From NCBI GenBank assembly GCA_024239035.1, contig JANBVK010000001.1, positions 506,202 through 570,201 on the forward strand: a stretch of 64,000 nt of DNA. Reading direction: 5' to 3'. The number at the start of each line of letters is the position of its first letter. Within the stretch, counting starts at the first letter, position 1. The translations under genes were made by a program, and so were the position numbers. The stretch is from Patescibacteria group bacterium. GTDB taxonomy: Bacteria > Patescibacteriota > Minisyncoccia > UBA6257 > GWB1-50-10. Positions 45,168 through 64,000 of this stretch are shown piece by piece. The notes beneath the pieces are model-generated. The model was not told the origin of the DNA and ran no database searches. It worked only from the letters and a program-made list of their open reading frames with translations.

Positions 45168-48100
45168 ATGAAGATAAGAACCAAAAAAGCTATTATAATA
45201 GGATTTTGTTTGCTTTTCGGACTTGGATTTTTTCTCCCAGCATTCGTTTTTGCTCAAGACGCTATTTCTGCGGTGGATCCAATTTTTCCTTCTTGGATGA
45301 TTGATGAGAGCGGAACGCATTTTGAGATAAACAATAACCCCTTTCTTGACCTCACGGTTGATAGCTCGGAGAATGTCCAGCTACAAATAGAGTCGATGCC
45401 GGAGATGGTAGTGATGATAATCGAGTCGGACTCTTCCGCTATTTCAAGCCAGATAAGTGTAAAAGGTCTTGAACCATCAACTACCTACTATAAATATGAA
45501 GATAGCTACCAAAATAGCGTGACTATCGATACTAGCAGTTCAGGAACCCTTACGTTTAGTCAGGATTTGTCGGTTCCACATATTATCTTTATACAAAAGA
45601 ATAAAAGCACCAAATTCATAAGAGATGACCTAACTGGTGGCGATTGTACAACAATAGGAATTTGGGATGTGACTACAAAAACTTGTACTCTCACTACCGA
45701 TGTTTTTGAGACGATTCAGATAGATAGTAACGATATCACACTCGACGGTAACGGTCATAGTATCTTTGGGGGAGGCATAGGAGTTTTTCTAGTTAGGAAG
45801 ACCGGAGTCACTGTTGAAAATCTTAACGTCAGAGGGTTTAATTCAGGAATTCTCTTATTCAGTTCGAATTTCAATAACTTACTCAATAATTCTTTGAGAC
45901 CCAACCTTACTGGAATTTCTCTATCGGGGACTAGCAATAATAATACAATTAGTGGTAATAACGTCTCATTAGGTGAGATAGGAATTTCTCTTCTGAGAGG
46001 TACAGGTAACAATAATGTTATTAACAATACTACATCGAATAATCGAAACGGCATCTCTCTCGGTCAGTCCGATGGTAATAGTTTAATAAACAACGTTGCC
46101 AATTCGAATAGTCGTTCTGGGATTAGCCTATCCGCTTCTAAGGATAACGTTCTAACTGATAATATCGTGCAGGAGAACGGGGAGGTTGATTTGGGTTTCG
46201 GAGCAAGTCAGCTCATCGATTGTGCTAATACAATTCAAGGGACTATTGGTTCTGGCAATAAACCGTTTGAGTATTTTAATTCTGTTGTAGATTTAAACAA
46301 CAAAACTCTTTCGGGATTAATACTTTGTGATGCTGACGATTCTAAAATTAGTGGTGTAGCAGTTGCTGGTTCAGGTACTAAGAAGAATAACGGTATATCA
46401 CTCCATTTTACGGATAATTCAATTATTGAGAACACTACTTCATCGGATAATCGCCAAGGCATTTCCTTTTTTAATTCAACTAATAACATTGTTAATAACA
46501 GCACCTTCGCAGAGAATGCTCTTCGGGGAATTTTTGTTGTTTCCAGGTCACCGTCTAATGAAATTGTTAATAATAATTTCATTAATAATGCCTTTCCACC
46601 TTTTGTTCAGACGAGGAGTGAGAGCGTCTTTAATTTACCCTTACCTGTTGGCGGTAATCACTGGAGTCGTTTCGATTCTCCGGCGGAAGGATGCGGTGAT
46701 GCTGATAACAACAGTATTTGCGACGCTCCGTTCGTCTTTTCGGGAGGGCAGGATAATTTCCCATTCGTGAATCGGGATGGCTGGAAAATACCTATAGTTA
46801 GAGAGCCGGTGGTTATTGTGCCAGGGATTATAGGCACAAAACTAAATAGAGTTTTGGATGGTAAGGAAGTTTGGCCACGAGTAAATACAATGATTACTTC
46901 CAGTACCGATGACTATTTAGACGAACTCAAGCTTACTGTAAACGGTACTCAGACGACAGGAAAAGAAATGAACCCTTCTAGAGTTATTGAAGAAGAATCT
47001 GTTTTGTTTTTTAACTTTGTATTCTACAAGAACCTCATAGATAACTTCAAAAATCAAGGATACGTGGAAGGCACAACACTTTTCACGGTTCCCTACGACT
47101 GGCGACTGGATATTCAAGATGAAGTAAATAGGTTAGACAGTGTAATCCAGCAGGCAATCGCAGAGTCCCTGAACGGCAAGATAGACATTATTGCCCACAG
47201 CATGGGAGGCCTGTTGGTAAAAGAGTTATTGGCAAACGCCACAAGCACAGTTTTCGTGAATAAACTTATTCTTGCGGGAGTGCCACAACTAGGTGCATCC
47301 GGAACATTTAAAATATTAAATTTCGGTGACAACCTTGGTTTTGAACTTGGACCGATTGATATCTTGAATTCTGAACGAGTGAAAATCATTTCCCAGAACA
47401 TGCCAGGTGTGCATGAACTTCTTCCAAGCGAGCGATACGTCCAAATAAACGGTGGCTATGTAAAAGATTTTAGAAACGGAATACAGATATTGGACTTTGA
47501 TCAAACAGAACAATTTATGATTGATGACGGAAGAAACCCTCTCTTGCTTAGTGAAGCCGATGCGTTTCACCAAGGATTAGACAATCAAGCGTTCAATGCA
47601 CCCGAGGTACACAATATAATGGGGTGCCAAAATCCTGAAACAATTTTTGGATTCAATATTTATGATAACAATGTAATTGATGTAACCCGAGATCAGGGGG
47701 ATGGCACAGTGCCACTCACGAGTGCCATCAATCTTTCCGGAGATTTTACTAATTATTTTGCTCTTCACAACGAAACAAACATAGATCATCTTGATTTGAT
47801 ACGAGACAGTCGTCCGATTGATCTTATCAATGACATTATCAATGAAACAGGAGATCCTCTACCGCAAGGAATCTCAACATCCACCATTGATTGTTTTGAT
47901 ACACCTGCCGTATCCGGAAACGAAACAACCATATCTTTCAGCCTCCATAGTCCTGCACAGCTTAATGTCTTTGATTCACAAAACAATCATACGGGGTTCA
48001 ACGAAGATGGTGATATCGACTTGCAAATTCCTGGAAGCAGCTTTGAAACAATAAACGGAAACAGCTTCGCGCTTGTGCCAGCAGGCGACACCTACCGAGT

Positions 48101-48944
48101 AGAAATCCAAGCGTTATCAGAGGGTGACTTTACCTTGAAAACCAAAACCTTCAACGGCGTCGCGATTATAGACGCGGTGACTTACGTAAACATCCCGCTC
48201 CCAAGCAATCAAACTCAGGCAGAACTTACCTTTACAGACACACAAGGAAATTTGACATTGAACGTTGATAATGACGGAGATGATATTATTGATGTTACTT
48301 TCCAACCAAACGCTATACTTGACGCTACGAGTAGTTTGGATATTACGCCGCCCGATATCACCATAGTATCTATTCCACCCGAAATCCTCTTGAACACAGA
48401 CTTCGTGTTTACTTTTAATGCAACTGATGATCTCTCGGGTGTTGAGGTACTCAAAGCCACGCTTGATGGTAACCCTGTAAGCAGCGGAGATACGATTACG
48501 TTGTCAGAAGTTGGCGACCACCTTTTCAGAGTTGAGGTTACAGACAAAGCAGGCAACCCCAGAGTAGAAGAAATAGGATTTAAAGTAGTTTATGATTTTG
48601 GTGGTTTTCTTTCGCCACTGCAGAAAAAAACTCTGGTATTCCAAGCGGGACGCAGTATACCAGTGAAGTTTCAATTACGAGACGTGAATAATAGTGTTAT
48701 TTCAAACGCGAGTGCATCTCTCTTTTTCGCTTTTCTCACTAATGGGGAATCAGGCACTTTCCAACCAGCAGTATCAAAAGGAAAAGCAAATATAGAAAAT
48801 CAATTCAGATTTGATCAAGAAGAACAGCAATATGTCTATAACTTGAATACAAAATCTTTAACTCCTGGAGATTACCGCTTAAGAGTTGATTTAGATGACG
48901 AAACCTCGAAATTCATAGACGTAGAACTGCGGAGCAATAAGTAA
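45168..48944 (+). CDS. Giant secreted multidomain protein: signal peptide, parallel beta-helix repeat region, a PGAP1/LCAT-like alpha/beta-hydrolase (lipase-like) domain, and Ig-like/Big domains
   Basis: 1258 aa. N-rich beta-helix repeats (NNTISGNNVSLGEIGISL...). Nucleophile elbow IIAHSMGGLL at about aa 670. C-terminal ...ATDDLSGVEVLKATLDGNPV...VTDKAGNP Ig-like pattern. Confidence 0.7.
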   Translation: MKIRTKKAIIIGFCLLFGLGFFLPAFVFAQDAISAVDPIFPSWMIDESGTHFEINNNPFLDLTVDSSENVQLQIESMPEMVVMIIESDSSAISSQISVKGLEPSTTYYKYEDSYQNSVTIDTSSSGTLTFSQDLSVPHIIFIQKNKSTKFIRDDLTGGDCTTIGIWDVTTKTCTLTTDVFETIQIDSNDITLDGNGHSIFGGGIGVFLVRKTGVTVENLNVRGFNSGILLFSSNFNNLLNNSLRPNLTGISLSGTSNNNTISGNNVSLGEIGISLLRGTGNNNVINNTTSNNRNGISLGQSDGNSLINNVANSNSRSGISLSASKDNVLTDNIVQENGEVDLGFGASQLIDCANTIQGTIGSGNKPFEYFNSVVDLNNKTLSGLILCDADDSKISGVAVAGSGTKKNNGISLHFTDNSIIENTTSSDNRQGISFFNSTNNIVNNSTFAENALRGIFVVSRSPSNEIVNNNFINNAFPPFVQTRSESVFNLPLPVGGNHWSRFDSPAEGCGDADNNSICDAPFVFSGGQDNFPFVNRDGWKIPIVREPVVIVPGIIGTKLNRVLDGKEVWPRVNTMITSSTDDYLDELKLTVNGTQTTGKEMNPSRVIEEESVLFFNFVFYKNLIDNFKNQGYVEGTTLFTVPYDWRLDIQDEVNRLDSVIQQAIAESLNGKIDIIAHSMGGLLVKELLANATSTVFVNKLILAGVPQLGASGTFKILNFGDNLGFELGPIDILNSERVKIISQNMPGVHELLPSERYVQINGGYVKDFRNGIQILDFDQTEQFMIDDGRNPLLLSEADAFHQGLDNQAFNAPEVHNIMGCQNPETIFGFNIYDNNVIDVTRDQGDGTVPLTSAINLSGDFTNYFALHNETNIDHLDLIRDSRPIDLINDIINETGDPLPQGISTSTIDCFDTPAVSGNETTISFSLHSPAQLNVFDSQNNHTGFNEDGDIDLQIPGSSFETINGNSFALVPAGDTYRVEIQALSEGDFTLKTKTFNGVAIIDAVTYVNIPLPSNQTQAELTFTDTQGNLTLNVDNDGDDIIDVTFQPNAILDATSSLDITPPDITIVSIPPEILLNTDFVFTFNATDDLSGVEVLKATLDGNPVSSGDTITLSEVGDHLFRVEVTDKAGNPRVEEIGFKVVYDFGGFLSPLQKKTLVFQAGRSIPVKFQLRDVNNSVISNASASLFFAFLTNGESGTFQPAVSKGKANIENQFRFDQEEQQYVYNLNTKSLTPGDYRLRVDLDDETSKFIDVELRSNK

Positions 48945-49568: not shown

Positions 49569-50852
49569 ATGGACCTTAACCTCAAGAGACCAAAAAATTT
49601 GTTTATTGCATTTTTGGTGATTGGCGTTCTTATTGTGGTGGGACAGCGCATCAAGATAGTTAATTTATTCAATCAAACATTCTTTTCTGAAGAAAGCTTA
49701 GTTGAGGAAATTTCTTTGAGCGGATCTCTTAGTGCATCTGTTTTGAAAAGTGAATCTTTGGGTGGAACAAACAGGAACACGCGGGGTGGGGTCGTAGTTT
49801 CGTGTTTGTCTAACGCGAAGACACCAACCCGCGACAAGGTAATCATTAACGAAGTTGCTTGGATGGGGACTACAGAAAGTTTTAGTAATGAATGGATCGA
49901 ACTGAAAAACATTTCGAATGATCCCGTCTCCATCTCCGGTTGGCAGTTTATGGATAAAGACGAACAAATAAAAATTATTTTCCCAGACTCGGCCGAAATT
50001 CCGACGAGTGGACTTTATCTTTTAGAAAGAGGTGAAGAAGCAATTGCCGGAGTCGAAGCTGACATCATCTACGCCGGTAATTTAAGAAATAGTGAAGAAG
50101 GTTTAAGATTATTTAACAATAAATGCGACTTAGTTGATGAAGTTTTAGCAAATCCTGATTGGCCGGCGGGGAATAACAAAGATAAAAGTCCCATGGAGCG
50201 GAATATTAAAGATTTTTCTTGGTACACCTCCACTATTATCGGCGGTACTCCGGGGAATGTAAATTCTCAGCCGCCCTTTAATGGATCTTTAGCTGTTTTA
50301 AATTTAGATACGGTTACAACCTTAGGCGATGACACCAAAGAGAGTGGAGAATTGGTTGAAGTTGAAGTTACTGTAATCCCGGAACAAAACTTCTCGCCTC
50401 CCCCTCCTTTCACTGGCTCGCAAGTATTAATAAGTGAAATAATGGCGGGAATTAACGGTAACGCAAAGCATGAGTTTATTGAACTTTACAATCCGGCGTC
50501 AAGTCCGGTTGATTTAAGCGGCTGGACACTGAAAAAGAAAAGTTCAACCGGAAGAGAGTCGTCTCTTGTTGTCTCGAGTCGTTTGGAAAGTAAAATTATT
50601 CCGCCCGGGAGCTATTTTCTTCTCGTAAACAGCGGAGGATGGACTGGCAGCATGATACCTGATGTGGAATGGCCCTCTTCATACAACCTTGCTTATACCA
50701 ACAATGCTATTTCCATCTACAACAAGGATGGAGAAGTAGTTGATGAAGTAAACTGGCAGGAAATCCCGAAAGGTAGGAGCTTCGAACGCCCATCTTGGGT
50801 GGACGATCAGTTTATAATTCAAATATCACCCAATCCTCAAGGTTCTAACTAG
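49569..50852 (+). CDS. Secreted protein with two lamin-tail-domain (LTD) repeats
   Basis: Repeats VIINEVAWMGT...NEWIELKNISNDPVSISGW and VLISEIMAGINGNAKHEFIELYNPASSPVDLSGW. N-terminal TM anchor. Confidence 0.6.
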   Translation: MDLNLKRPKNLFIAFLVIGVLIVVGQRIKIVNLFNQTFFSEESLVEEISLSGSLSASVLKSESLGGTNRNTRGGVVVSCLSNAKTPTRDKVIINEVAWMGTTESFSNEWIELKNISNDPVSISGWQFMDKDEQIKIIFPDSAEIPTSGLYLLERGEEAIAGVEADIIYAGNLRNSEEGLRLFNNKCDLVDEVLANPDWPAGNNKDKSPMERNIKDFSWYTSTIIGGTPGNVNSQPPFNGSLAVLNLDTVTTLGDDTKESGELVEVEVTVIPEQNFSPPPPFTGSQVLISEIMAGINGNAKHEFIELYNPASSPVDLSGWTLKKKSSTGRESSLVVSSRLESKIIPPGSYFLLVNSGGWTGSMIPDVEWPSSYNLAYTNNAISIYNKDGEVVDEVNWQEIPKGRSFERPSWVDDQFIIQISPNPQGSN

Positions 50853-51052: not shown

Positions 51053-53512
51053 ATGAAAGAGAAAAAAAATACTCTTCGTAGCGAGGTTAAATTAAGCGAC
51101 GCGAGAATTAACAGAAGTTTTTCGGAAAATGCCTTGAAGATGATGCGCAAGCGTTATCTTTTTACCGACGAAAAAGGTAATCAGGAGACTTCCGCCCAGA
51201 TGTTTCATCGGATTGCCCGCACTTTAGCTGAAGTTGAGAAAAATTACGGTCACAATGCGCAATTTGTAAAGAAAGTTGAGCGCGACTTCTTTGAAATTAT
51301 GGCTGGTAAGGAATATACACCCGCTGGGCGGACGATTACAAACGTCGGAACACCTACATCCCTTATCGCGAACTGTATTGTTTTGCCAATTCACGATTCA
51401 ATGGAGAGTATTTTTCAAACCTTAAAGGATGCATCTCTTCTGCAGCAAGCCGGTTCGGGTTTAGGCTTTTCTCTTGATGAACTCAGGCCGTCAATGTCGC
51501 CGACAAAACGGTCGCGAGGTTCCTCGTCCGGTCCGGTTTCATTTTTAAAAATTTACAACGAAGCTTTTAGTACAATTAAACAGCAGGGGCGTCACGGTGC
51601 GAACATGGCAATGATGAGCGTTGATCATCCCGACGTTTTGGACTTTATCCGTTCAAAAGCAGTAGAAGGAGAGATTAGAAACTTTAATATATCTATTAAG
51701 GTGACTGATAAGTTTATGAGAATGGTGGAGGAGGAACCGGATGAGCAATGGTATTGTACGTGGAAAGGTAAAAAGTCAAAACCCAGTAAAGTTCTTCGGC
51801 ACCCGAACGGAAGTGTTTACGGGTCAGAGGATATCAACATTACGGTTGGCGAACTTTTTAACGAAATTGTTGAATACGCTTGGACAAACGGGGAACCGGG
51901 TATAGTTTTTATTGATACTGTAAACAAATCAAATCCTTTGCCGGGCTTAGGGCGAATTGAGTGTTCTAATCCTTGCGGTGAACAGTTTTTACACTCCTAC
52001 GATAATTGTAATTTGGGATCGATTAATCTGGCCACCCTTGTTAAAGATAAGCAAGTTGATTACGAGCGACTTAGATTTGTGGTGAAGACTGCAGTACGGT
52101 TTATGGATAACGTGATTGATAAGTTTGATTTCCCGGTTAAGAAAGTTACCGCCTTAGCGCGTAAGAATCGCCGGATCGGTTTGGGAATTATGGGGTTTGC
52201 TGACATGCTTTTCCAACTCGGCATTAAATACAATTCTGAAGAAGGATACGCTACAGCAGGAAAAATAATGTCAGTCATTCAAGAATCAGCTCATAGAATG
52301 TCTCAGGAGCTTGCTGAGGAGAAAGACGTTTTTCCCAATTACCCAAAGAGTATTTTTGCAGAAAAGAAAATAAAAATGAGAAACGCTGCCCTGACTACCA
52401 TTGCTCCAACTGGTTCTATTGCTATGATGTTTGATTCTTCTTCCGGTGTGGAACCGAACTTTGCTTTAGCCTACATCAAACAAGATAAGGATGGTGTGCA
52501 GTACCAATATCTCAATAGATATTTTGAGGAAGAACTTCGGCGTCGGACATTTGATGAGGTAACCATTTCAGAGATTAAAAAGGAGATTGTTAAAACCGGC
52601 AGTATTCAAAACCTTGATTATCTACCCCAGGATCTCCGTGATACGTTTGTGGTTGCAATGGATATACCAGGTGAAGATCACATTGGAATGCAGGCCGCGT
52701 TTCAAAATCATATTGATAATTCTATTTCCAAGACTATTAATCTCCCGAATAGTGCAACCCGGGAGGACGTTAAGTCCAGCTTTCTTCAGGCGTGGAAGTT
52801 GGGGTGCAAGAGCTGCACGGTCTATCGGGACGGCAGCCGCAACATTCAAATTTTAAACCTGGGAACGGGAGAGAATATAAAATCAACCACTGAGGCACCG
52901 ACAGGAGAGAATTCACCGGAAGAAACTAACCTTGACCTAGAGATAGACAAAGGGAAGCTCTCGCCAAGAGCTCGGCCGATGGTTATGGAGGGAAAGACCT
53001 ATAGGGTAAAAACCGGCTATGGCAAGCTTTATATCACAGTTAATAATGACGAAACCGGAGTGCCTTTTGAGGTATTCGCGACAATTGGGAAGAGCGGCGG
53101 TTTTTTCCAGGAGCAAAGCGAGGGTATTTGCCGGCTTATTTCCTTGTCTCTCCGAGCCGGCATTAAAGTTGAAGAAATTATCGATAACTTAAAAGGCATT
53201 CGCGGACCAATGCCTGTGTTTTCTGATAAGGGAACAATTCTTTCATTGCCGGATGCTATCGGGCAAATACTGGAAGAACATGTTCGGAAAGAAATACCAA
53301 AAGCGGAACTGCCGGCGGGTTCTAAAGTTTCTGAGGCGGCCGTGGTAGCAGCAAAAGTAGATTTGGATTTTCTTAAGAAAGAAAATGAAATTAAAGGAGA
53401 ATCACTAGCCGATAACGGAATGATGCCAGGTTGCCCGGATTGTGGTGCGTCCCTTCAGGTAAGTGAAGGGTGCTTGAATTGCCGAAGCTGCGGCTTTACG
53501 AGATGTACGTAG
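51053..53512 (+). CDS. nrdJ: Adenosylcobalamin-dependent (class II) ribonucleotide reductase with a C-terminal zinc ribbon
   Basis: 819 aa monomeric RNR core (…NCIVLP…, GLGFS, active-site Cys region). C-terminal CPDC...CLNCRSC. Confidence 0.85.
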   Translation: MKEKKNTLRSEVKLSDARINRSFSENALKMMRKRYLFTDEKGNQETSAQMFHRIARTLAEVEKNYGHNAQFVKKVERDFFEIMAGKEYTPAGRTITNVGTPTSLIANCIVLPIHDSMESIFQTLKDASLLQQAGSGLGFSLDELRPSMSPTKRSRGSSSGPVSFLKIYNEAFSTIKQQGRHGANMAMMSVDHPDVLDFIRSKAVEGEIRNFNISIKVTDKFMRMVEEEPDEQWYCTWKGKKSKPSKVLRHPNGSVYGSEDINITVGELFNEIVEYAWTNGEPGIVFIDTVNKSNPLPGLGRIECSNPCGEQFLHSYDNCNLGSINLATLVKDKQVDYERLRFVVKTAVRFMDNVIDKFDFPVKKVTALARKNRRIGLGIMGFADMLFQLGIKYNSEEGYATAGKIMSVIQESAHRMSQELAEEKDVFPNYPKSIFAEKKIKMRNAALTTIAPTGSIAMMFDSSSGVEPNFALAYIKQDKDGVQYQYLNRYFEEELRRRTFDEVTISEIKKEIVKTGSIQNLDYLPQDLRDTFVVAMDIPGEDHIGMQAAFQNHIDNSISKTINLPNSATREDVKSSFLQAWKLGCKSCTVYRDGSRNIQILNLGTGENIKSTTEAPTGENSPEETNLDLEIDKGKLSPRARPMVMEGKTYRVKTGYGKLYITVNNDETGVPFEVFATIGKSGGFFQEQSEGICRLISLSLRAGIKVEEIIDNLKGIRGPMPVFSDKGTILSLPDAIGQILEEHVRKEIPKAELPAGSKVSEAAVVAAKVDLDFLKKENEIKGESLADNGMMPGCPDCGASLQVSEGCLNCRSCGFTRCT

Positions 53513-53592: not shown

Positions 53593-54192
53593 CTACTTTC
53601 CGGCGTCTGGGATTTTCAGCCACTTATTTGCGGTTATGTGCCAGTCGGCCGCATCAACCACCTGTAATGTATCCCAAAGATCTTTGGCTGATTTTGTATA
53701 GAGTTTTTCATCGCGGATCATCCTGCGGAACTTCACCCACTTTTTTGGTAATTTAGAACCTCGTTCTTCCAGTTCTTTTATTTCCAAATCAATATCTAGA
53801 TTATCAGCGTCCTTAATAATTTTTGCTTCTATAGATTCCCTTTTTTCGTATTCTTGGAGAACGTCACTGTAGAAATTTTGAACCTCGGTTCCTTCAAATA
53901 AATCGCGTGCTGATGCATTCTCATCTGCATCAACGTAAACCTTTTGAATATAGCTCAAGTCGGTCGTCCTGGTCTCGGCAATGTCGTGAACCAAAGCCAT
54001 TTTCAAAATTTTTTCCTCATTCTTCACTCCTTCTTTTCTTGCGATAATGAGTGCTAACCAAATAACTCTTAATGTGTGCTCAAGGACGTTGGCGCAGTCC
54101 ATTCCGAGATGTTGCCTCCACCCTCGTTGGATATTGTGCAGAGAACCTATTTCAAATAGAAACTCAATATCCCTCTTATTATTTTTCTCCAT
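53593..54192 (-). CDS. HD-domain 5'-deoxynucleotidase (YfbR-like)
   Basis: Motifs H...LVHDIAETRTTDL...D. 199 aa. Confidence 0.6.
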   Translation of the reverse strand: MEKNNKRDIEFLFEIGSLHNIQRGWRQHLGMDCANVLEHTLRVIWLALIIARKEGVKNEEKILKMALVHDIAETRTTDLSYIQKVYVDADENASARDLFEGTEVQNFYSDVLQEYEKRESIEAKIIKDADNLDIDLEIKELEERGSKLPKKWVKFRRMIRDEKLYTKSAKDLWDTLQVVDAADWHITANKWLKIPDAGK

Positions 54193-58849: not shown

Positions 58850-60283
58850 GTGATTAATTTTATTAAAAAACCGATTGTTATCTTGATTGCCGTGCTGGTT
58901 ATTGTTTTTGGCGTCTATTTTCTTTTTATAAAAGACAAGAAATCTGCTCACGAGTTTGTCGTCGTTCGACGAGGTGATCTTCTGCAGGAGGTCAGTGTTA
59001 CGGGTCGGGTGAAACCTGTCGCGGACGTTGACCTCGCCTTCGAAAATAGCGGGAGGATAGCAAGGGCAAGCGTTGACATCGGTGATAAGGTATTTGCCGG
59101 TCAGGTTTTAGTTCGGTTGGACAGCTCCGAATTATCCGCCGAATTAACAAAAGCTGAATCAGATTTAGTAACCCAGGAGGCAAAATTAAGTAAGTCAGAA
59201 ACCGATTTAACTAATCTTTACGCCAGCATTATTGATATTTTAAATGACGCTTTCATCAAAGCTGATGATGCCGTCCGCGCGAAAACAGCCGCAATCTTCA
59301 GTGGTTCGAGAACGTCCGCTTATCAATTGACTTTTTCTACATGCGACGATCAGGCAAAGATAGATTCTATTAATGGGCGTCTTGTCTCTGAGAGCATTTT
59401 GGATAAATGGGAGACGGAGCTTGCCACGCTGACGAGCGAGTCGTCTGATGCTGAACGTGACCAGGCACTTAAAAACGCCAAAGGGCACCTCATAGACATT
59501 AGGGGATTCGTTGATCGATTGAACGACGTGTTGACTGATGATTGTGTGCTCGGTCAAAGCTCATTAGATATCTACCGAACCAACGTTAATAGCAGTCGAA
59601 CCAATATAAATACTGCTCTGACCAACATCAATGATCAGGAACAGAGCATTAATTCGCAGAAGGCTGCGGTTGTCTCGGAGGAGGCAACAATTAAAAGTTA
59701 TCAAGCAGCCGTTCAAACTATCAAGGCACAGCTCTCCAAAACCGTTCTTTATTCTCCCATTACCGGTGTTGTCACGGTGCAAAACGCTGAGAGAGGGGAG
59801 ATTGTAGGTGCCAACGAGGTAATAGTTTCAATTATTTCCATTACCCAACTTGAAATTGAAGCGAATATACCAGAAGCAGATATTGCGAAAGTAGAAATCG
59901 GCGATGTGGCAAAGGTAACTCTGGACGCTTACGGCAGCGACGTGATTTTTAATATAGAAGTTGCCGCCATTGATCCTGCAGAAACCATTGTTGAAGGAGT
60001 GGCAACATACAAAACTACATTTCAGTTTATAGGAGAGGACGAACGCATTAAATCAGGAATGACTGCTAACATTGACGTGTTAACCGACAAGCGCGAGAAC
60101 GTTATCACCGTTCCCCAGCGAGCAGTCATTACAAGAAGCGGAGAGAAAATAGTGAGATTGCTTCGCGATGGAATAGTTGAAGAAAGAAAAGTTATTACGG
60201 GTCTTCGCGGCTCTCTCGGGAATATAGAAATTATCGAAGGAGTGGAGAGCGGGGATAAAGTTATTATTTTTCTTCAACCTTAG
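58850..60283 (+). CDS. Efflux periplasmic adaptor (HlyD/MacA-type membrane fusion protein)
   Basis: GTG start. N-terminal TM helix, long coiled coil and beta-barrel/lipoyl motifs. Followed by an ABC ATPase and an FtsX permease. Confidence 0.7.
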   Translation: MINFIKKPIVILIAVLVIVFGVYFLFIKDKKSAHEFVVVRRGDLLQEVSVTGRVKPVADVDLAFENSGRIARASVDIGDKVFAGQVLVRLDSSELSAELTKAESDLVTQEAKLSKSETDLTNLYASIIDILNDAFIKADDAVRAKTAAIFSGSRTSAYQLTFSTCDDQAKIDSINGRLVSESILDKWETELATLTSESSDAERDQALKNAKGHLIDIRGFVDRLNDVLTDDCVLGQSSLDIYRTNVNSSRTNINTALTNINDQEQSINSQKAAVVSEEATIKSYQAAVQTIKAQLSKTVLYSPITGVVTVQNAERGEIVGANEVIVSIISITQLEIEANIPEADIAKVEIGDVAKVTLDAYGSDVIFNIEVAAIDPAETIVEGVATYKTTFQFIGEDERIKSGMTANIDVLTDKRENVITVPQRAVITRSGEKIVRLLRDGIVEERKVITGLRGSLGNIEIIEGVESGDKVIIFLQP

Positions 60284-60310: not shown

Positions 60311-61027
60311 ATGCATTTAATTGAGGTAAAAGATTTAGAGAAAACATATTATATTGATAGTGTTCAAACCCCGGCTCTTCGCGGGGTATCTTTTAAAATT
60401 AAAGAAGGAGAGTTTGTAGCCATAGTCGGTCCTTCGGGCTCGGGTAAATCAACCCTACTCCATGTTTTAGGGTTTTTAGACAGGCACACGGCGGGCGAGT
60501 ACCACTTTGATGGCAAAACTATTAATGATTATTCAGAAGAAGAAATTGCCCGTGTAAGGAATAAAGAGATGGGATTTATTTTCCAAACCTTTAATTTACT
60601 TCCTCGCACAACCGTTCTTGAGAACGTTAAACTTCCTCTTCTTTATTCCGGTGTTAAAGAGTCGTTGTGGGAGAAAAAAGCTCGGCAGGTTATTGATTCA
60701 GTCGGTCTTTCTCATCGGCTTCACCACGAATCTTCTCAGCTCTCAGGTGGAGAAATACAAAGAGTTGCCATTGCCCGCGCTCTTGTAAATAACCCGAGAA
60801 TTATTTTTGCTGATGAGCCTACCGGTAATCTTGATTCTAAGTCGGGGAAAGTAATCATGGAGCTTATTCAGAAACTTAATAATGACGGGCATACTGTCAT
60901 ATTAATCACGCACGAGACCTACACCGCCAAGCACGCAGAGCGTTTAATCCGCTTAAGCGATGGAGCGATAAAGGAGGACGCTCCCGTTGACCATCGTCTT
61001 GTCGCCGCTGACCACTTTACGAAATAA
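60311..61027 (+). CDS. ABC transporter ATP-binding protein (MacB/LolD type)
   Basis: Walker [10 protein letters not shown], signature LSGGEIQR, Walker B IIFADEPT. Confidence 0.9.
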
Positions 61028-61038
61028 ACGCATTTTTC

Positions 61039-62295
61039 ATGTTGATTAAATACAGCGTCAAAACAGCCCTTACGGGACTTATAACCAATAAATCCCGCTC
61101 AATTCTCACTATTCTCGGGATTGTAATAGCCATCGCTGCCATCGTGCTTATCGTTTCCATCGGCCAAGGAGCTAAGGATTTGATTTTACAACAAATCCAG
61201 GGACTTGGATCAAAAACTATAGTGGTTATTCCTGGCAGAGAGCCGGAGGGGCCCTCTGATTTTGTAAACGTATTTCTAGACTCTTTAAAAGAAAAGGATT
61301 ATAAACTTTTAAAAAATAAAAACAACGTTCCTGGCGCAGAAGACATCATGCCTTTGGTGATCAGCTCAGTTAAATTATCTTATTTTGATGAGACATACCA
61401 AGCTACAATATTGGGCGGCGGAGACGATGAAATAAACAATCTGATGGCCAGAATATTTGATATTTTTCCTGATCGTGGGTCTTTCTTCACGCCGCAAGAC
61501 GTTTCTTCAAGAGCAAGCGTTATTGTTATAGGCGACAATGTCCGTGAGGAACTTTTTGGAGAAAGCATTAATCCTTTGGGGGAGAAGATAAAAATCAATG
61601 GACGCAATTTTAGGGTTATTGGCATTTTACCTTCAAAGGGGCAAGTTTCTTTTTTTAACTTTGATGATATGGTGTTAGCTCCGTACACTACAGCTCAGCA
61701 GTACATATTGGGGCGAAAATATTTTGACCGCATTATTGTTGTGGCAAAATCAGAAAAAGTCATTGCGAGAACGGTTAGCGACATAGAGATTACTTTGCGA
61801 AGTTCTCATGGTATAACTGATCCAGATAAAGATGATTTTTTTGTTGAAACTCAAGCGGATCTGGTTGAGCGTGTAGGTTTTATTACAAATATTTTAACTT
61901 TGTTTTTAGTAACTATTGCTGCCATATCTTTACTTGTTGGCGGAATAGGAATTATGAATATAATGTTGGTTTCCGTTACCGAAAGAACTAAAGAGATAGG
62001 TCTTCGTAAGGCGGTGGGAGCGACAAACAAAGACATACTAAGACAATTTTTATTAGAATCGGTTTTACTCACCGCGATCGGCGGGATAGTAGGAATTGCA
62101 CTTGGGGTAGCGCTCTCTTTTGTTGTCTCTTTAATATTAACTTACTCTCTGGGTCTAAACTGGGAATTTACTTTTCCTCTATCGGCGGCTGCTCTAGGGT
62201 TAGGAGTTTCCGCCGCGGTGGGGCTTGTGTTTGGAATCTATCCTGCAAGGCAAGCCGCTAAGAAAACCCCAATAGATGCTCTGCGGTATGAATAA
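61039..62295 (+). CDS. ABC transporter permease, FtsX/MacB type
   Basis: N-terminal TM, large periplasmic MacB_PCD-like domain, C-terminal 3-TM FtsX domain. Confidence 0.85.
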   Translation: MLIKYSVKTALTGLITNKSRSILTILGIVIAIAAIVLIVSIGQGAKDLILQQIQGLGSKTIVVIPGREPEGPSDFVNVFLDSLKEKDYKLLKNKNNVPGAEDIMPLVISSVKLSYFDETYQATILGGGDDEINNLMARIFDIFPDRGSFFTPQDVSSRASVIVIGDNVREELFGESINPLGEKIKINGRNFRVIGILPSKGQVSFFNFDDMVLAPYTTAQQYILGRKYFDRIIVVAKSEKVIARTVSDIEITLRSSHGITDPDKDDFFVETQADLVERVGFITNILTLFLVTIAAISLLVGGIGIMNIMLVSVTERTKEIGLRKAVGATNKDILRQFLLESVLLTAIGGIVGIALGVALSFVVSLILTYSLGLNWEFTFPLSAAALGLGVSAAVGLVFGIYPARQAAKKTPIDALRYE

Positions 62296-62405: not shown

Positions 62406-62663
62406 ATGAAAGGTCTTCATTACGTAACGTATACATTGTTGGTCGTCGGTGGCCTTAACTGGCTGCTTGTTGGTCTTATAGGTTGGGATATTGGTGCTCT
62501 TTTCGGTGGAATGGATGCGGTTGTTTCAAGAATTATTTACATTCTTATTGGTGTCTCCGCTGTTGTTGAGATCGTGACTCACAAGAGTTGTTGTCGGGGA
62601 TGCGGGAAAGGCGCCGCTGCTTCTAGTGCTCCCGTCCCTGGTCAGGGAACGGGCACAACCTAG
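62406..62663 (+). CDS. DUF378-like small membrane protein
   Basis: VVGGLNWLLVGLIGWDIGALFGG pattern. Extended -10 TGGTATAAT at about 62343-62352 upstream. Confidence 0.45.
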   Translation: MKGLHYVTYTLLVVGGLNWLLVGLIGWDIGALFGGMDAVVSRIIYILIGVSAVVEIVTHKSCCRGCGKGAAASSAPVPGQGTGTT

Positions 62664-62760
62664 TAATAACTTATTGAATTTAAATTAACAAAAACGGTCG
62701 GTGTTTATGCGCCGATCGTTTTTGTTTGAAAACATCAGGAAATTGTTTCATTATTAATAA

Positions 62761-63585
62761 ATGCTTATTACAAAATTATCGGGTGAGACGGAACAATTCT
62801 CTCACAGCAAACTTCAAAGGTCATTAACGAACGCCGGTGCCCCACCCGAACGCGTTAAAGCAATCGTCCGGGAAGTAGAGAAGGGATTGAAAAAAGGGGT
62901 GACTACGCAAGAAATTTACCGAAGAGCATTTTCTCTTCTGAAGCGGGAGAAAGGGCCGTTTGCAGCGCGATACAGTTTGAAGAGGGCAATTTTTGAGTTG
63001 GGTCCGCATGGATATCCTTTTGAGAAATTTATCGGCAAATTATTGGAAAGAAAAGGGTACAAAGTAGAGATTGGTAAATATATCCGCGGGAAGTGCGTTA
63101 CCCACGAAGTTGACGTAGTTGCCAAGAAAGAGAACAAACACTTCCTTATTGAGAGTAAATTTCATAATCGGCAAGGTACTAAATCCGACGTGAAAGTGGC
63201 GCTCTACATTAAAGCGCGATTTGATGACATCCAAAGTAAATTAAAAAACGTGCCGGGTCACACCGTGTTTCACCAAGTATGGCTTATAACAAACACAAAG
63301 TTCACTAGTAATGCAATCCGCTATGCTAACTGCGTGCACATGAAAATGACGGGGTGGAATTATCCGAAGCGTGGGGGTCTTGAAGATCTTATTGAACAAT
63401 CCGGTCTCCATCCTCTCACAGCTCCTACGAGCTTGTCTTCTCCTCAAAAAAAAGCGCTTCTAAATAAAGGAATTGTTCTTTGTCGGGAAATAATAGAAAA
63501 ACCCCGACTCCTTAAAGAGATCGGTTTAAGAGGCGATAAACATCAACGAGTGATAGAGGAAATTGAAAGTATATGCTCAGTATAG
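62761..63585 (+). CDS. ATP-cone domain fused to an Mrr-cat-like (PD-(D/E)xK) restriction-endonuclease domain
   Basis: N-terminal about 95 aa fits the ATP-cone pattern. The middle region GYPFEKFIGKLLERKGYKVEIG...HEVDVVAKKENKHFLIESKFHN fits Mrr catalytic-domain architecture. Confidence 0.55.
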   Translation: MLITKLSGETEQFSHSKLQRSLTNAGAPPERVKAIVREVEKGLKKGVTTQEIYRRAFSLLKREKGPFAARYSLKRAIFELGPHGYPFEKFIGKLLERKGYKVEIGKYIRGKCVTHEVDVVAKKENKHFLIESKFHNRQGTKSDVKVALYIKARFDDIQSKLKNVPGHTVFHQVWLITNTKFTSNAIRYANCVHMKMTGWNYPKRGGLEDLIEQSGLHPLTAPTSLSSPQKKALLNKGIVLCREIIEKPRLLKEIGLRGDKHQRVIEEIESICSV

Positions 63586-63594
63586 TTAAAAACA

Positions 63595-64000
63595 ATGAAG
63601 AATAAGGAAATAATTGTTGTCGTTGTTATTCTTATTCTCTTTTTGCTGGCCGGATATTTTGCCCGGGAGTATTCTGAAGCCCTAAAAGGACTGATTCAGT
63701 TTCAGGGTCCCTCCGGAATGCTGCTATATGTTTTAGGGGCAATAGTGGCGACGGTTATTGCTCCTCTTAGTTTTTTACCCTTTTTACCCGTGGCGGTTGC
63801 TCTTTGGGGCAGCTTTATAGCGGCGGTTTTGAGTATTATTGCCTGGACAGCCGGGGCAATAATTGCTTTTACTCTGGCCCGGCGTTACGGTCACCCGCTG
63901 GTTCATAAGATTGTGAATATGAAAAAAATTGAACGATTTGAAAATCTGATTCCACCCCAGAATCTTTTCTGGAGCGTTGTTTTTATGCGCGTTGCCTTAC
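63595..64000 (+). CDS. DedA/TVP38-family membrane protein (3' end outside the window)
   Basis: Hydrophobic helices and ...FLPFLPV... in a DedA-like arrangement. Runs off the window edge. Confidence 0.55.
   Translation, partial: MKNKEIIVVVVILILFLLAGYFAREYSEALKGLIQFQGPSGMLLYVLGAIVATVIAPLSFLPFLPVAVALWGSFIAAVLSIIAWTAGAIIAFTLARRYGHPLVHKIVNMKKIERFENLIPPQNLFWSVVFMRVAL

Follow-up and report, generated by a model that had tools for sequence, protein, structure and literature searches.

What does a protein do when a nucleotide switch is joined to a nuclease? ATP-cones are the dNTP-supply switches of ribonucleotide reductases (RNR) and of NrdR, and the window, as we call the whole 64-kb stretch of DNA analyzed here, carries a gene for which a preliminary description had proposed the fusion of an ATP-cone with a PD-(D/E)xK core of the Mrr type. 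The family to which this gene belongs has database names and no published function in the literature that we searched. Our best reading, drawn from sequence and gene context and given slightly less than an even chance, is that of a nuclease gated by adenine nucleotides and serving the turnover and salvage of nucleic acids.

Domain architecture and local context of the gene

The gene, the domains of its product and the neighboring features are:

58850-60283, + strand: HlyD-like adaptor, upstream of the ATP-cone-nuclease gene (ORFs, Pfam labels)
60311-61027, + strand: ABC ATPase, upstream (ORFs, Pfam labels)
61039-62295, + strand: MacB/FtsX permease, upstream (ORFs, Pfam labels)
62406-62663, + strand: DUF378 membrane protein, upstream (Pfam DUF378)
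62726..62754, + strand: weak sigma-70-like promoter match, TTGAAA-17-CATTAT, just 5' of the ATG (consensus scan)
62761..63585, + strand: complete ORF, 274 aa plus stop, with ATP-cone, PD-(D/E)xK nuclease and helix-hairpin-helix (HhH) tail (ORF list, sequence)
62761..62994, + strand: ATP-cone domain, about residues 1-78; two short strands, then helices 15-24, 29-41, 49-61 and 67-78
62998..63024, + strand: junction L80-G81-P82-x-G84-x-P-F87-E88, from the cone to the first nuclease helix (conservation)
63013..63360, + strand: PD-(D/E)xK nuclease core (Mrr_cat / AF1548-type), about residues 85-200
63373..63582, + strand: C-terminal helical domain, about residues 205-274, AF1548-like_C, HhH-like fold
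63595..64000, + strand: VTT/DedA-family membrane protein, downstream, leaving the window (sequence; Pfam VTT_dom on the full 203-aa product, L001)

The ATG start of the 62761-63585 ORF abuts an in-frame TAA, and the translation contains all the peptides that the preliminary description had quoted; a protein 100% identical to it, P0001, is labeled 'ATP cone domain-containing protein [Patescibacteria group bacterium]' and comes from a 729-kb scaffold. The window copy, part of a streamlined Patescibacteria genome, stands alone behind a MacAB-type efflux operon, in a stress / metal-transport island type of context that was also seen at other loci, and other CPR genomes have a similar HlyD-like/MacB/ABC block upstream of the homolog P0119. 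The VTT/DedA gene is probably co-transcribed with the ATP-cone-nuclease gene, because it lies on the same strand and starts 9 nt past the stop codon. Sigma-70-like matches in the upstream region were not more numerous than expected by chance (2 found, 3.2 expected), and the GC content, 0.39-0.45 over 56-64 kb of the window, gave no trace of a recent transfer of the gene.

Pfam searches bore out the proposed fusion, with a match of residues 1-75 to the ATP-cone profile (PF03477) at 31.3 bits, above the curated cut-off of 25.8, and a match of residues 85-191 to Mrr_cat at 28.0 bits, above the cut-off of 21; a further match of residues 232-271 to AF1548-like_C reached 19.7 bits, under the cut-off of 23.9. 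In an AlphaFold model based on the alignment of the family (pLDDT 92.2, pTM 0.88), the cone is predicted to fold as a short beta-hairpin capping a four-helix bundle that can be superposed on the cones of RNR and NrdR, NrdR structures being its best structural matches, and the pTM indicates a fixed arrangement of the modeled domains. The nuclease has the alpha-beta-beta-beta-alpha-beta core fold of PD-(D/E)xK enzymes and resembles, in structure comparisons, AspBHI, MspJI and LlaBIII as well as the ligand-gated nucleases Can2 and Card1, while the HhH tail resembles the HhH regions of Pol X, RAD51 and RuvA. At E values up to 1, Pfam detected neither Mrr_N nor SRA nor any other reader of modifications in the 274-aa protein, and an NCBIfam search with the same limit returned no NrdR family for it. 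The zinc ribbon of NrdR is absent, the cone sits at the N-terminus with a nuclease behind it, and the length is 274 aa versus about 150 aa for NrdR.

The nuclease and the tail belong to the same family as AF1548 of Archaeoglobus fulgidus (PDB 1Y88; Mrr_cat plus AF1548-like_C), which aligns with residues 90-271 (E 6e-35) but lacks the ATP-cone. AF1548 is a structural-genomics entry without assigned function that was predicted to be a restriction endonuclease from sequence and structure alone (PMC1821046), and our literature search found no paper on its function past this 2007 prediction and none on the cone-nuclease fusion. Compared with the cones of NrdA, NrdB, NrdD and NrdR, the output here is a PD-(D/E)xK nuclease and not a zinc ribbon or a reductase. 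In contrast to Mrr / type IV enzymes, AspBHI, MspJI and LlaBIII, the protein has a cone and an HhH tail instead of a modification-reading or target-recognition domain, and the restriction-modification or defense context of Mrr / type IV enzymes is not seen among its most frequent neighbor families. Unlike Can2, Card1, Cap4 and NucC, its sensor is an ATP-cone, for bulk adenine nucleotides, and not a CARF or SAVED domain for cyclic oligonucleotides; no CRISPR or CBASS genes were found near the surveyed family loci. The third, HhH domain and the membership in the AF1548 structural family go beyond the preliminary description, as does the recurrent beta-CASP / AMP-phosphorylase / Prs / RuBisCO operon link presented below.

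Conservation of the catalytic and nucleotide sites

Conservation was analyzed in 145 divergent relatives, mostly less than 50% identical to each other. The predicted catalytic residues are:

63022-63024, + strand: E88, helix glutamate, kept in 145/145
63112-63114, + strand: D118, kept in 145/145
63151-63153, + strand: E131, kept in 144/145
63157-63159, + strand: K133, kept in 145/145

The last three form the D...E-x-K motif to which the preliminary description had drawn attention, and their counterparts in AF1548 are D38, E51 and K53. The near-invariance of all four residues points to selection for catalysis, which on this evidence is probably retained in the family. The cone-nuclease architecture and the intact catalytic residues thus make a nucleotide-sensing nuclease the natural reading of the protein; this part of the earlier interpretation stands, whereas its ideas of defense or restriction and of an RNR regulator find no support in the gene context described below. 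Conservation along the protein peaks in the junction, where the 10-residue block from residue 81 has the highest mean value (0.77) and G81, G84, F87 and E88 are each kept in 145/145 sequences; together with the pTM of the model, this supports a coupling between cone and nuclease.

In the cone, the conserved residues K5, E11, K17, L18, T49 and Y/H53 align to K9, E15, K21, I22, T55 and H59 of NrdA, which, along with R10, we take to be the nucleotide-contacting residues of the E. coli protein. The conservation of these equivalents suggests that the cone is probably functional. The equivalent of R10, a phosphate contact in NrdA, is not conserved and is A or S in most members, in which the family differs from the NrdA, NrdB, NrdD and NrdR cones, as it does in lacking a genomic link with nrd genes. 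Among the cysteines, strong conservation and covariation are confined to C112 and C191 and do not extend to C241 and C272; a four-cysteine metal cluster was rejected on these grounds, the C112/C191 pair being retained.

The family is single-copy and, at 90% identity, falls into more than 4,000 clusters in CPR bacteria, archaea, Bacteroidota and Chlamydiota, with a mean column identity across phyla of 61%, which is unusually high. Some members lack the cone, namely AF1548 and P0179, P0180 and P0266 (211-222 aa), so that the cone seems to be a regulatory module added to a nuclease that suffices by itself. Neither the IMG/VR viral contigs nor a set of 50,697 phage records contained a relative, and a phage origin was rejected for this reason; only 2 of 72,556 plasmids carry a family member.

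Gene neighborhoods of the family

The locus sample consisted of the 80 best matches of one metagenome scan, in which kin loci were not collapsed phylogenetically, and partners were counted at the 31 loci whose flanks each reach 5 kb or more. The preliminary description had posed a choice between defense islands and nrd operons, and the survey returned neither: 15 of the 31 well-flanked loci have instead at least one salvage partner, that is, a beta-CASP ribonuclease-like gene (12/31), an AMP-phosphorylase-like gene (12/31) or a Prs-like gene, and about half have none of the three. These partners are always on the same strand as the family gene, and the gap to a directly adjacent beta-CASP gene ranges from -34 to +65 nt. 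They recur in various gene orders at metagenome loci, and the operon linkage with AMP phosphorylase spans at least five orders and several phyla; the family gene is often the first of its operon. In annotated operons on two plasmids, one of Criblamydia and one of Pontibacter, the gene for the ATP-cone protein is followed by genes for an MBL/beta-CASP protein, a thymidine-phosphorylase family protein and Prs, all overlapping or nearly abutting.

In two MAG contigs, one from a Nitrososphaera MAG, the family gene lies inside an operon of the archaeal AMP pathway (AMP phosphorylase DeoA, R15P isomerase E2b2, type III RuBisCO), in the order IF-2B-type isomerase, type III RuBisCO, AMP phosphorylase, family gene and PEP synthase, with NCBIfam equivalog-level calls for AMP phosphorylase, RuBisCO III and PEP synthase; in many bacteria it adjoins an AMP-phosphorylase-like gene. 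The best PDB matches of the bacterial phosphorylase partner are 4GA4-4GA6 (E 1e-104, versus 1e-38 for true pyrimidine phosphorylases), which are entries for the AMP phosphorylase of T. kodakarensis. An RMMBL domain, and aCPSF1 as its closest relative, make the beta-CASP partner look RNA-directed, whereas DNA is the usual ligand of HhH domains. In archaea the AMP / pentose-bisphosphate pathway is established, and it has been proposed for CPR bacteria, with RNA-derived ribose as a suggested source (PMC5113843, PMC6389311), and the pathway papers that we checked name no nuclease, no ATP-cone protein and no gate. In the family, the operon linkage with this pathway was seen at 12 of the 31 well-flanked loci; it is absent from the 64-kb window, in which none of the probes for beta-CASP, AMP-phosphorylase-like, Prs, Usp, P-ATPase and other proteins had a tBLASTn match. 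The window protein branches among stand-alone members in an approximate tree, and a pathway role is therefore transferred to it by homology, at 44-55% identity.

Other neighbors of the family include genes for Usp, PFK, lactate dehydrogenase, NDH2, PPK2, MgtC, P-type ATPases, AhpC, SOD and a ribosome hibernation factor. In Bradyrhizobium, the MBL-Prs-TPase triad bll3115-3117 is induced by microoxia (PMC6515984), the genes flanking it not being listed in the supplements, and in Burkholderia low oxygen causes a 30-fold induction of the MBL 'metal-dependent RNase' BCAM0300 (PMC3721108). Direct control by FNR found no support, as the FNR/CRP box TTGAT-N4-ATCAA, with at most one mismatch, is not enriched upstream of the family gene (0.12 versus a background of 0.10 per kb). 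An unbiased Pfam census of 125 immediate neighbors contained no DNA methyltransferase or established defense family among its 25 most frequent families; the sole 'conflict system' name, GT4-conflict, came from 2 matches, to proteins that also match ordinary group-1 glycosyltransferases.

Proposed function and its alternatives

As the relatives adjoin genes for nucleotide recycling and low-energy stress, and not for virus defense, the nuclease probably serves the breakdown of nucleic acid for recycling. Starting from the observed architecture, fold, conservation of the catalytic and nucleotide sites and gene neighborhoods, we infer the ligand, the direction of regulation, the substrate (DNA or RNA) and the pathway role. 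The product would be a cytoplasmic three-domain endonuclease in which the N-terminal ATP-cone binds adenine nucleotides (ATP and/or dATP), the invariant junction LGPxGxPFE links the cone with a metal-dependent PD-(D/E)xK nuclease at its catalytic helix, and the C-terminal HhH domain grips the nucleic-acid backbone independently of sequence. Occupancy of the cone by nucleotide would turn the nuclease on or off, most likely through the oligomeric state or the geometry of the junction, by analogy with RNR and NrdR, and would confine cleavage to a particular energy or dNTP status in a housekeeping or stress-related turnover of nucleic acids. The beta-CASP nuclease could trim the resulting fragments to nucleoside monophosphates, from which an AMP-phosphorylase-type enzyme would release the base and ribose-1,5-bisphosphate, itself to be converted into PRPP or, via the isomerase and type III RuBisCO, into 3-phosphoglycerate. 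It is gene order that would place the family protein in the AMP / pentose-bisphosphate pathway.

The same domains could also make a structure- or damage-specific nuclease of DNA repair or recombination, its activity tuned by the dATP/ATP pool via the cone. The likeness of the HhH tail to Pol X, RAD51 and RuvA is consistent with this, as are the single copy and the strong conservation, which repair genes often show, and at 6-8 loci with an MnmA-type synteny the gene is followed by a PDDEXK_1/Cas4-like nuclease (Pfam) and a putative family-4 uracil-DNA glycosylase (identified by eye). This synteny also holds MnmA, AlaRS and YceG, however, and may for that reason be an inherited order without functional meaning; the loci that show it are probably from CPR-type genomes like that of the window. 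We consider a repair role unlikely, since it leaves unexplained why operons in other phyla repeatedly, and in changing order, join the gene to AMP phosphorylase, Prs, RuBisCO and PEP synthase, and the canonical repair partners (ligase, polymerase, RecA, Mut) do not recur in the neighbor census. Quite improbable is an NrdR-like transcription factor, in which DNA binding would be all that the nuclease fold and the HhH domain do, and the cone would adjust the repression of RNR or of the adjacent salvage operon to ATP/dATP. The match of the cone to NrdR structures and the leading position of the gene in many operons would fit such a regulator, and so would the window itself, where the preliminary description had correctly reported an RNR (51053-53512) without an ATP-cone and no NrdR, HMM and motif searches having found no other ATP-cone or NrdR-like ORF in the 64 kb. 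Arguing against it, the four catalytic residues are essentially invariant in 145 divergent members, and the catalytic motif persists in cone-less homologs such as AF1548. A link to RNR was rejected after tBLASTn of the window RNR against all loci gave no match near the family gene: no RNR homolog lies within about 10 kb at any other surveyed locus, and the RNR of the window lies some 9 kb upstream of the gene, with unrelated genes between.

The other earlier idea, an Mrr-like type IV restriction enzyme or other anti-phage nuclease gated by dNTP levels, is in our view very improbable and was rejected as the main reading. What speaks for it is the Mrr_cat match, the likeness of the core to AspBHI, MspJI, LlaBIII and the ligand-gated Can2/Card1, weak PADLOC matches to ZorD and CARF-PDDEXK effectors in their nuclease domains, and a Criblamydia island that is flanked by an integrase and an AbiE toxin-antitoxin pair. 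The PADLOC matches, however, span only the shared nuclease fold (E 7e-5 and weaker), and the protein lacks detectable modification readers, the most frequent families of the census include no restriction-modification or established defense partners, and viral, phage and plasmid collections hold no or almost no copies. Restriction enzymes are not known for the high conservation across phyla that this family shows, and the gene is present in minimal CPR genomes among housekeeping genes.

The adenine-nucleotide-gated nuclease that we favor could be taken one step further, to a possible though doubtful role of the family as the unrecognized valve at the entrance to the AMP / pentose-bisphosphate and NMP-salvage route, which would read adenylate or dATP, and perhaps redox via the covarying C112/C191, and license nucleic-acid breakdown under energy or oxygen limitation. 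If so, the breakdown of cellular or imported nucleic acid would feed the beta-CASP nuclease, AMP phosphorylase and Prs or RuBisCO, the family would provide the first known ATP-cone that controls a nuclease rather than dNTP synthesis, and it would supply nucleotides to CPR bacteria, which are described as limited in biosynthetic capacity. More generally, a large, conserved cone-nuclease family would extend the logic of the ATP-cone from nucleotide synthesis to nucleic-acid breakdown, and the gene order that it shares with AMP phosphorylase, type III RuBisCO, Prs and beta-CASP proteins suggests a source of substrate, and a possible gate, for the AMP pathway in archaea and CPR bacteria. As the family recurs beside gene families that are induced by low oxygen in Burkholderia and Bradyrhizobium, it may also bear on the physiology of dormancy and persistence. 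The family protein is small and cytoplasmic, the structure of its core is solved, and Pontibacter and Criblamydia are cultivable carriers.

Domain anatomy and conservation of the cone-nuclease

The open reading frame at 62761-63585 (+) was confirmed to encode a protein of 274 aa, with its ATG immediately 3' of an in-frame TAA and all of the peptides quoted in the preliminary description present in the translation. The ATP-cone and the Mrr-like nuclease domain proposed there were both recovered by Pfam searches, the former at the N-terminus (residues 1-75; 31.3 bits, cut-off 25.8) and the latter as a match to Mrr_cat (residues 85-191; 28.0 bits, cut-off 21), together with a match below threshold to AF1548-like_C at residues 232-271. 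A homologue of known structure is AF1548 (1Y88; E 6e-35 over residues 90-271), a structural-genomics entry without known function whose D38, E51 and K53 were predicted to be catalytic in the GOS paper (PMC1821046); this kinship and the third domain had been overlooked. The window protein consists of three domains, an ATP-cone and a PD-(D/E)xK nuclease, both intact, followed by an HhH tail, and the AlphaFold model generated from an alignment of 40 family sequences was confident (pLDDT 92.2, pTM 0.88).

An identical protein, deposited on a 729-kb scaffold, is named 'ATP cone domain-containing protein [Patescibacteria group bacterium]', and NCBIfam contains no model specific to it. The window gene belongs, as an ordinary member, to a family that is annotated in databases but uncharacterised; as the fusion is already visible in Pfam and in PGAP names, its observation is not new in itself, and no description of it was found in the literature searched.

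The family is large and strongly constrained: clustering at 90% identity gives over 4,000 clusters, and of those formed at 50% identity 469 have E <1e-30. Nearly all members share the same architecture and a length of 270-295 aa. In a set of 145 divergent sequences, mostly less than 50% identical to each other, E88, D118 and K133 were kept in all, E131 in 144, and K5 and K17 of the cone in 143 each. Conservation peaks at the junction LGPxGxPFE (residues 80-88), which runs from the cone into the helix bearing E88. Profile alignment of the family to E. coli NrdA (probability 85.6%, E 5.5e-6) placed K5, E11, K17, L18, T49 and Y/H53 opposite NrdA K9, E15, K21, I22, T55 and H59, positions that line the activity-site nucleotide pocket, with the equivalent of NrdA R10 not conserved. 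Because homologues lacking the cone exist (AF1548 and the family proteins P0179, P0180 and P0266), the cone looks, from these comparisons, like a regulatory module appended to a self-sufficient nuclease.

Gene neighbourhoods in the window and across the family

The features relevant to the window neighbourhood are as follows.

45168-48944 (+): 1258-aa protein with NosD/beta-helix repeats and an LCAT-type lipase/acyltransferase domain
49569-50852 (+): the next gene, 427-aa protein with lamin-tail domains
51053-53512 (+): RNR with a C-terminal TSCPD domain
53593-54192 (-): HD/YfbR-like 5'-deoxynucleotidase
5' of the window gene, same strand: HlyD-like adaptor, ABC ATPase, MacB/FtsX permease and DUF378 protein
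62761-63585 (+): window gene
Downstream, starting 9 nt past the window-gene stop: VTT/DedA membrane protein

MetK and PP2C genes follow that for VTT/DedA, and GC content around the window gene is unremarkable. As had been stated, the RNR has no ATP-cone of its own and no NrdR is encoded within the 64-kb window, where no further cone or NrdR-like ORF was found. The RNR gene lies tail-to-tail with that of the deoxynucleotidase, forming a small dNTP-pool gene pair, and the 1258-aa and 427-aa proteins are probably surface-exposed or secreted. Approximately 5-8 kb past the window end, on the opposite strand to the window gene, an 840-aa Eco57I/DNA_methylase-type protein adjoins a LexA-like repressor (16008-19131 of L001, the source contig); no other family member has a methyltransferase nearby, and this one is not conserved at other loci.

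To compare contexts, 88 non-redundant loci bearing a homologue were collected from one metagenome scan and from genome, plasmid and exact-protein look-ups, and processed by ORF calling, clustering of neighbours and naming of cluster representatives. An unbiased Pfam census of 125 immediate neighbours was headed by P-type ATPases (9), beta-CASP metallo-beta-lactamase nucleases (7), MnmA (6), Usp (6), PDDEXK_1 nucleases (4) and MgtC (3). Four types of context were distinguished.

Gene contexts of the cone-nuclease
Context A, same-strand module: cone-nuclease, sometimes an 84-aa protein, beta-CASP nuclease, 500-aa 'thymidine phosphorylase family' protein, Prs-like ribose-phosphate diphosphokinase
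Context B, metal and oxidative stress: copper-type ATPase directly downstream, multicopper oxidase, CusAB, DUF411, AhpC, SOD, Zn/Mn ABC transporters
Context C, housekeeping synteny: YceG ... MnmA, cone-nuclease, Cas4-like nuclease or MgtC, putative uracil-DNA glycosylase (read by eye), AlaRS
Context D, a Nitrososphaera MAG and a Clostridia-labelled MAG: IF-2B-type isomerase, type III RuBisCO, AMP phosphorylase, cone-nuclease, PEP synthase

Context A is usually flanked by genes for Usp, lactate dehydrogenase-like, PFK, MgtC/DUF4010, NDH2, PPK2 and heavy-metal P-type ATPase proteins, and annotated examples in which its genes abut or overlap come from one plasmid each of Criblamydia sequanensis and Pontibacter actiniarum. 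In CPR genomes, context B adds a ribosome hibernation factor and HlyD-like/MacB/ABC blocks resembling that of the window. The loci of context C probably belong to CPR-type genomes like the window's. The AMP phosphorylase, RuBisCO III and PEP synthase of context D pass NCBIfam equivalog cut-offs.

Individual loci merit separate mention. On the Criblamydia plasmid (NZ_LK031773, record 2689-23079), the four-gene module shares an island with genes for phosphoketolase, glycogen phosphorylase, acetate kinase, CusA and a P-type ATPase. An integrase and an AbiE toxin-antitoxin pair mark its borders, which gives the island the look of a mobile 'energy-stress' cassette. The two MAGs of context D (L087 and L089) share the whole operon, reflecting either mis-binning or its inter-domain transfer in full. 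Another stress- or dormancy-flavoured context is that of a Nealsonbacteria MAG (L096:6683-9617), in which the cone-nuclease gene overlaps the start of a Zn/Mn-type ABC transporter gene pair by 4 nt and is flanked by genes for a cold-shock protein and a ribosome hibernation factor (Ribosomal_S30AE).

Linkage to AMP phosphorylase and stress genes

The bacterial 'thymidine phosphorylase' passes archaeal-type phosphorylase models, scoring 470-507 bits on the AMP-phosphorylase model, just below its cut-off of 535. Its best PDB matches are 4GA4-4GA6 (E 1e-104), entries for the T. kodakarensis AMP phosphorylase, with true pyrimidine phosphorylases at 1e-38. The beta-CASP partner bears an RMMBL 'RNA specificity' domain and most closely resembles aCPSF1 and Cas14-type ribonucleases.

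Of the 31 loci flanked by 5 kb or more on each side, 12 carried the AMP-phosphorylase-like gene, 12 beta-CASP and 9 Prs, with at least one of the three in 15. The partners were invariably on the cone-nuclease strand, with a gap of -34 to +65 nt where beta-CASP was adjacent. At least five arrangements of the phosphorylase gene were seen (immediately upstream or downstream of the cone-nuclease, behind beta-CASP, behind a P-ATPase, and with or without Prs), which favours functional coupling with the cone-nuclease over inherited synteny. The family is repeatedly operon-linked to the beta-CASP nuclease and to nucleotide catabolism of the AMP-phosphorylase/Prs/RuBisCO type, and is often found among genes for energy, oxygen and metal stress. 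In an approximate NJ tree, operon-type contexts occupied one large part of the family and the window protein branched close to the root, together with stand-alone members; the 64-kb window contains none of the partner genes.

Three further conserved proteins accompany the module. The 84-aa ORF lies between the cone-nuclease and beta-CASP genes in eight loci (L025, L028, L029, L030, L032, L044, L075, L077; e.g. L075:3534-3788), has a C-terminal ...SCCGGH motif and no match in Pfam; proteins of 219 aa (11 loci; L003:14635-15294) and 97 aa (8 loci; L075:6590-6883), usually encoded 3' of the Prs-like gene, have none in Pfam or NCBIfam.

So consistent an association with stress islands and with the AMP-phosphorylase pathway seems not to have been described in the literature searched, and the AMP-pathway papers checked name no nuclease or ATP-cone protein (PMC5113843, PMC6389311, 10.1101/2019.12.22.886556). 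In Bradyrhizobium, microoxia induces the MBL-Prs-thymidine-phosphorylase triad bll3115-3117 at the protein and RNA levels (PMC6515984). Low oxygen also induces the Burkholderia lxa (low-oxygen-activated) locus, which encodes Usps, PFK, a cation ATPase, HlyD/ABC transporter proteins, a class II RNR and an MBL 'metal-dependent RNase', the last increased 30-fold (PMC3721108, PMC4981469, PMC6127331).

Proposed role, alternatives and further sequence features

We propose that the cone binds ATP and/or dATP and would gate the nuclease by way of the invariant junction or by oligomerisation, and that the cone-nuclease would initiate nucleic-acid breakdown whose products enter NMP phosphorolysis and salvage. 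Such control of a nuclease by an ATP-cone would be a variation on two known themes, ATP-cone allostery and ligand-gated restriction-fold nucleases. A repair nuclease is the main competing explanation; it is supported by the HhH tail and by the conserved gene order that includes a Cas4-like nuclease and a probable uracil-DNA glycosylase (read by eye). In the Patescibacteria genome of the window, the protein may do the same catabolic job without linked partners, or possibly a repair-type one.

The two functions initially suggested fared less well. A DNA-binding regulator akin to NrdR is disfavoured by the invariance of the catalytic residues and by the absence of nrd linkage, no RNR homologue being found near the cone-nuclease in any surveyed locus other than the window's. 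A dNTP-gated nuclease of defence or restriction is likewise disfavoured by gene context and distribution: no DNA methyltransferase or established defence family was among the 25 most frequent families of the neighbour census, and its two GT4-conflict matches were both to proteins also matching ordinary group-1 glycosyltransferases.

Two further features emerged from the alignments. C112 (63094-63096) and C191 (63331-63333) covary perfectly across the 145 divergent sequences, with both present in 136 and neither in 9, a pattern that points to a disulfide or a ligand site common to the two and, as the family occurs in low-oxygen and oxidative-stress islands, possibly to a redox switch. The query was matched in two separate stretches in the family representatives P0143 (324 aa), P0155 (335 aa), P0211 (403 aa) and P0222 (295 aa); the first three exceed the usual length by 50-130 aa, suggesting that the nuclease domain holds an insertion near residue 160-170, where conservation across the family is lowest.
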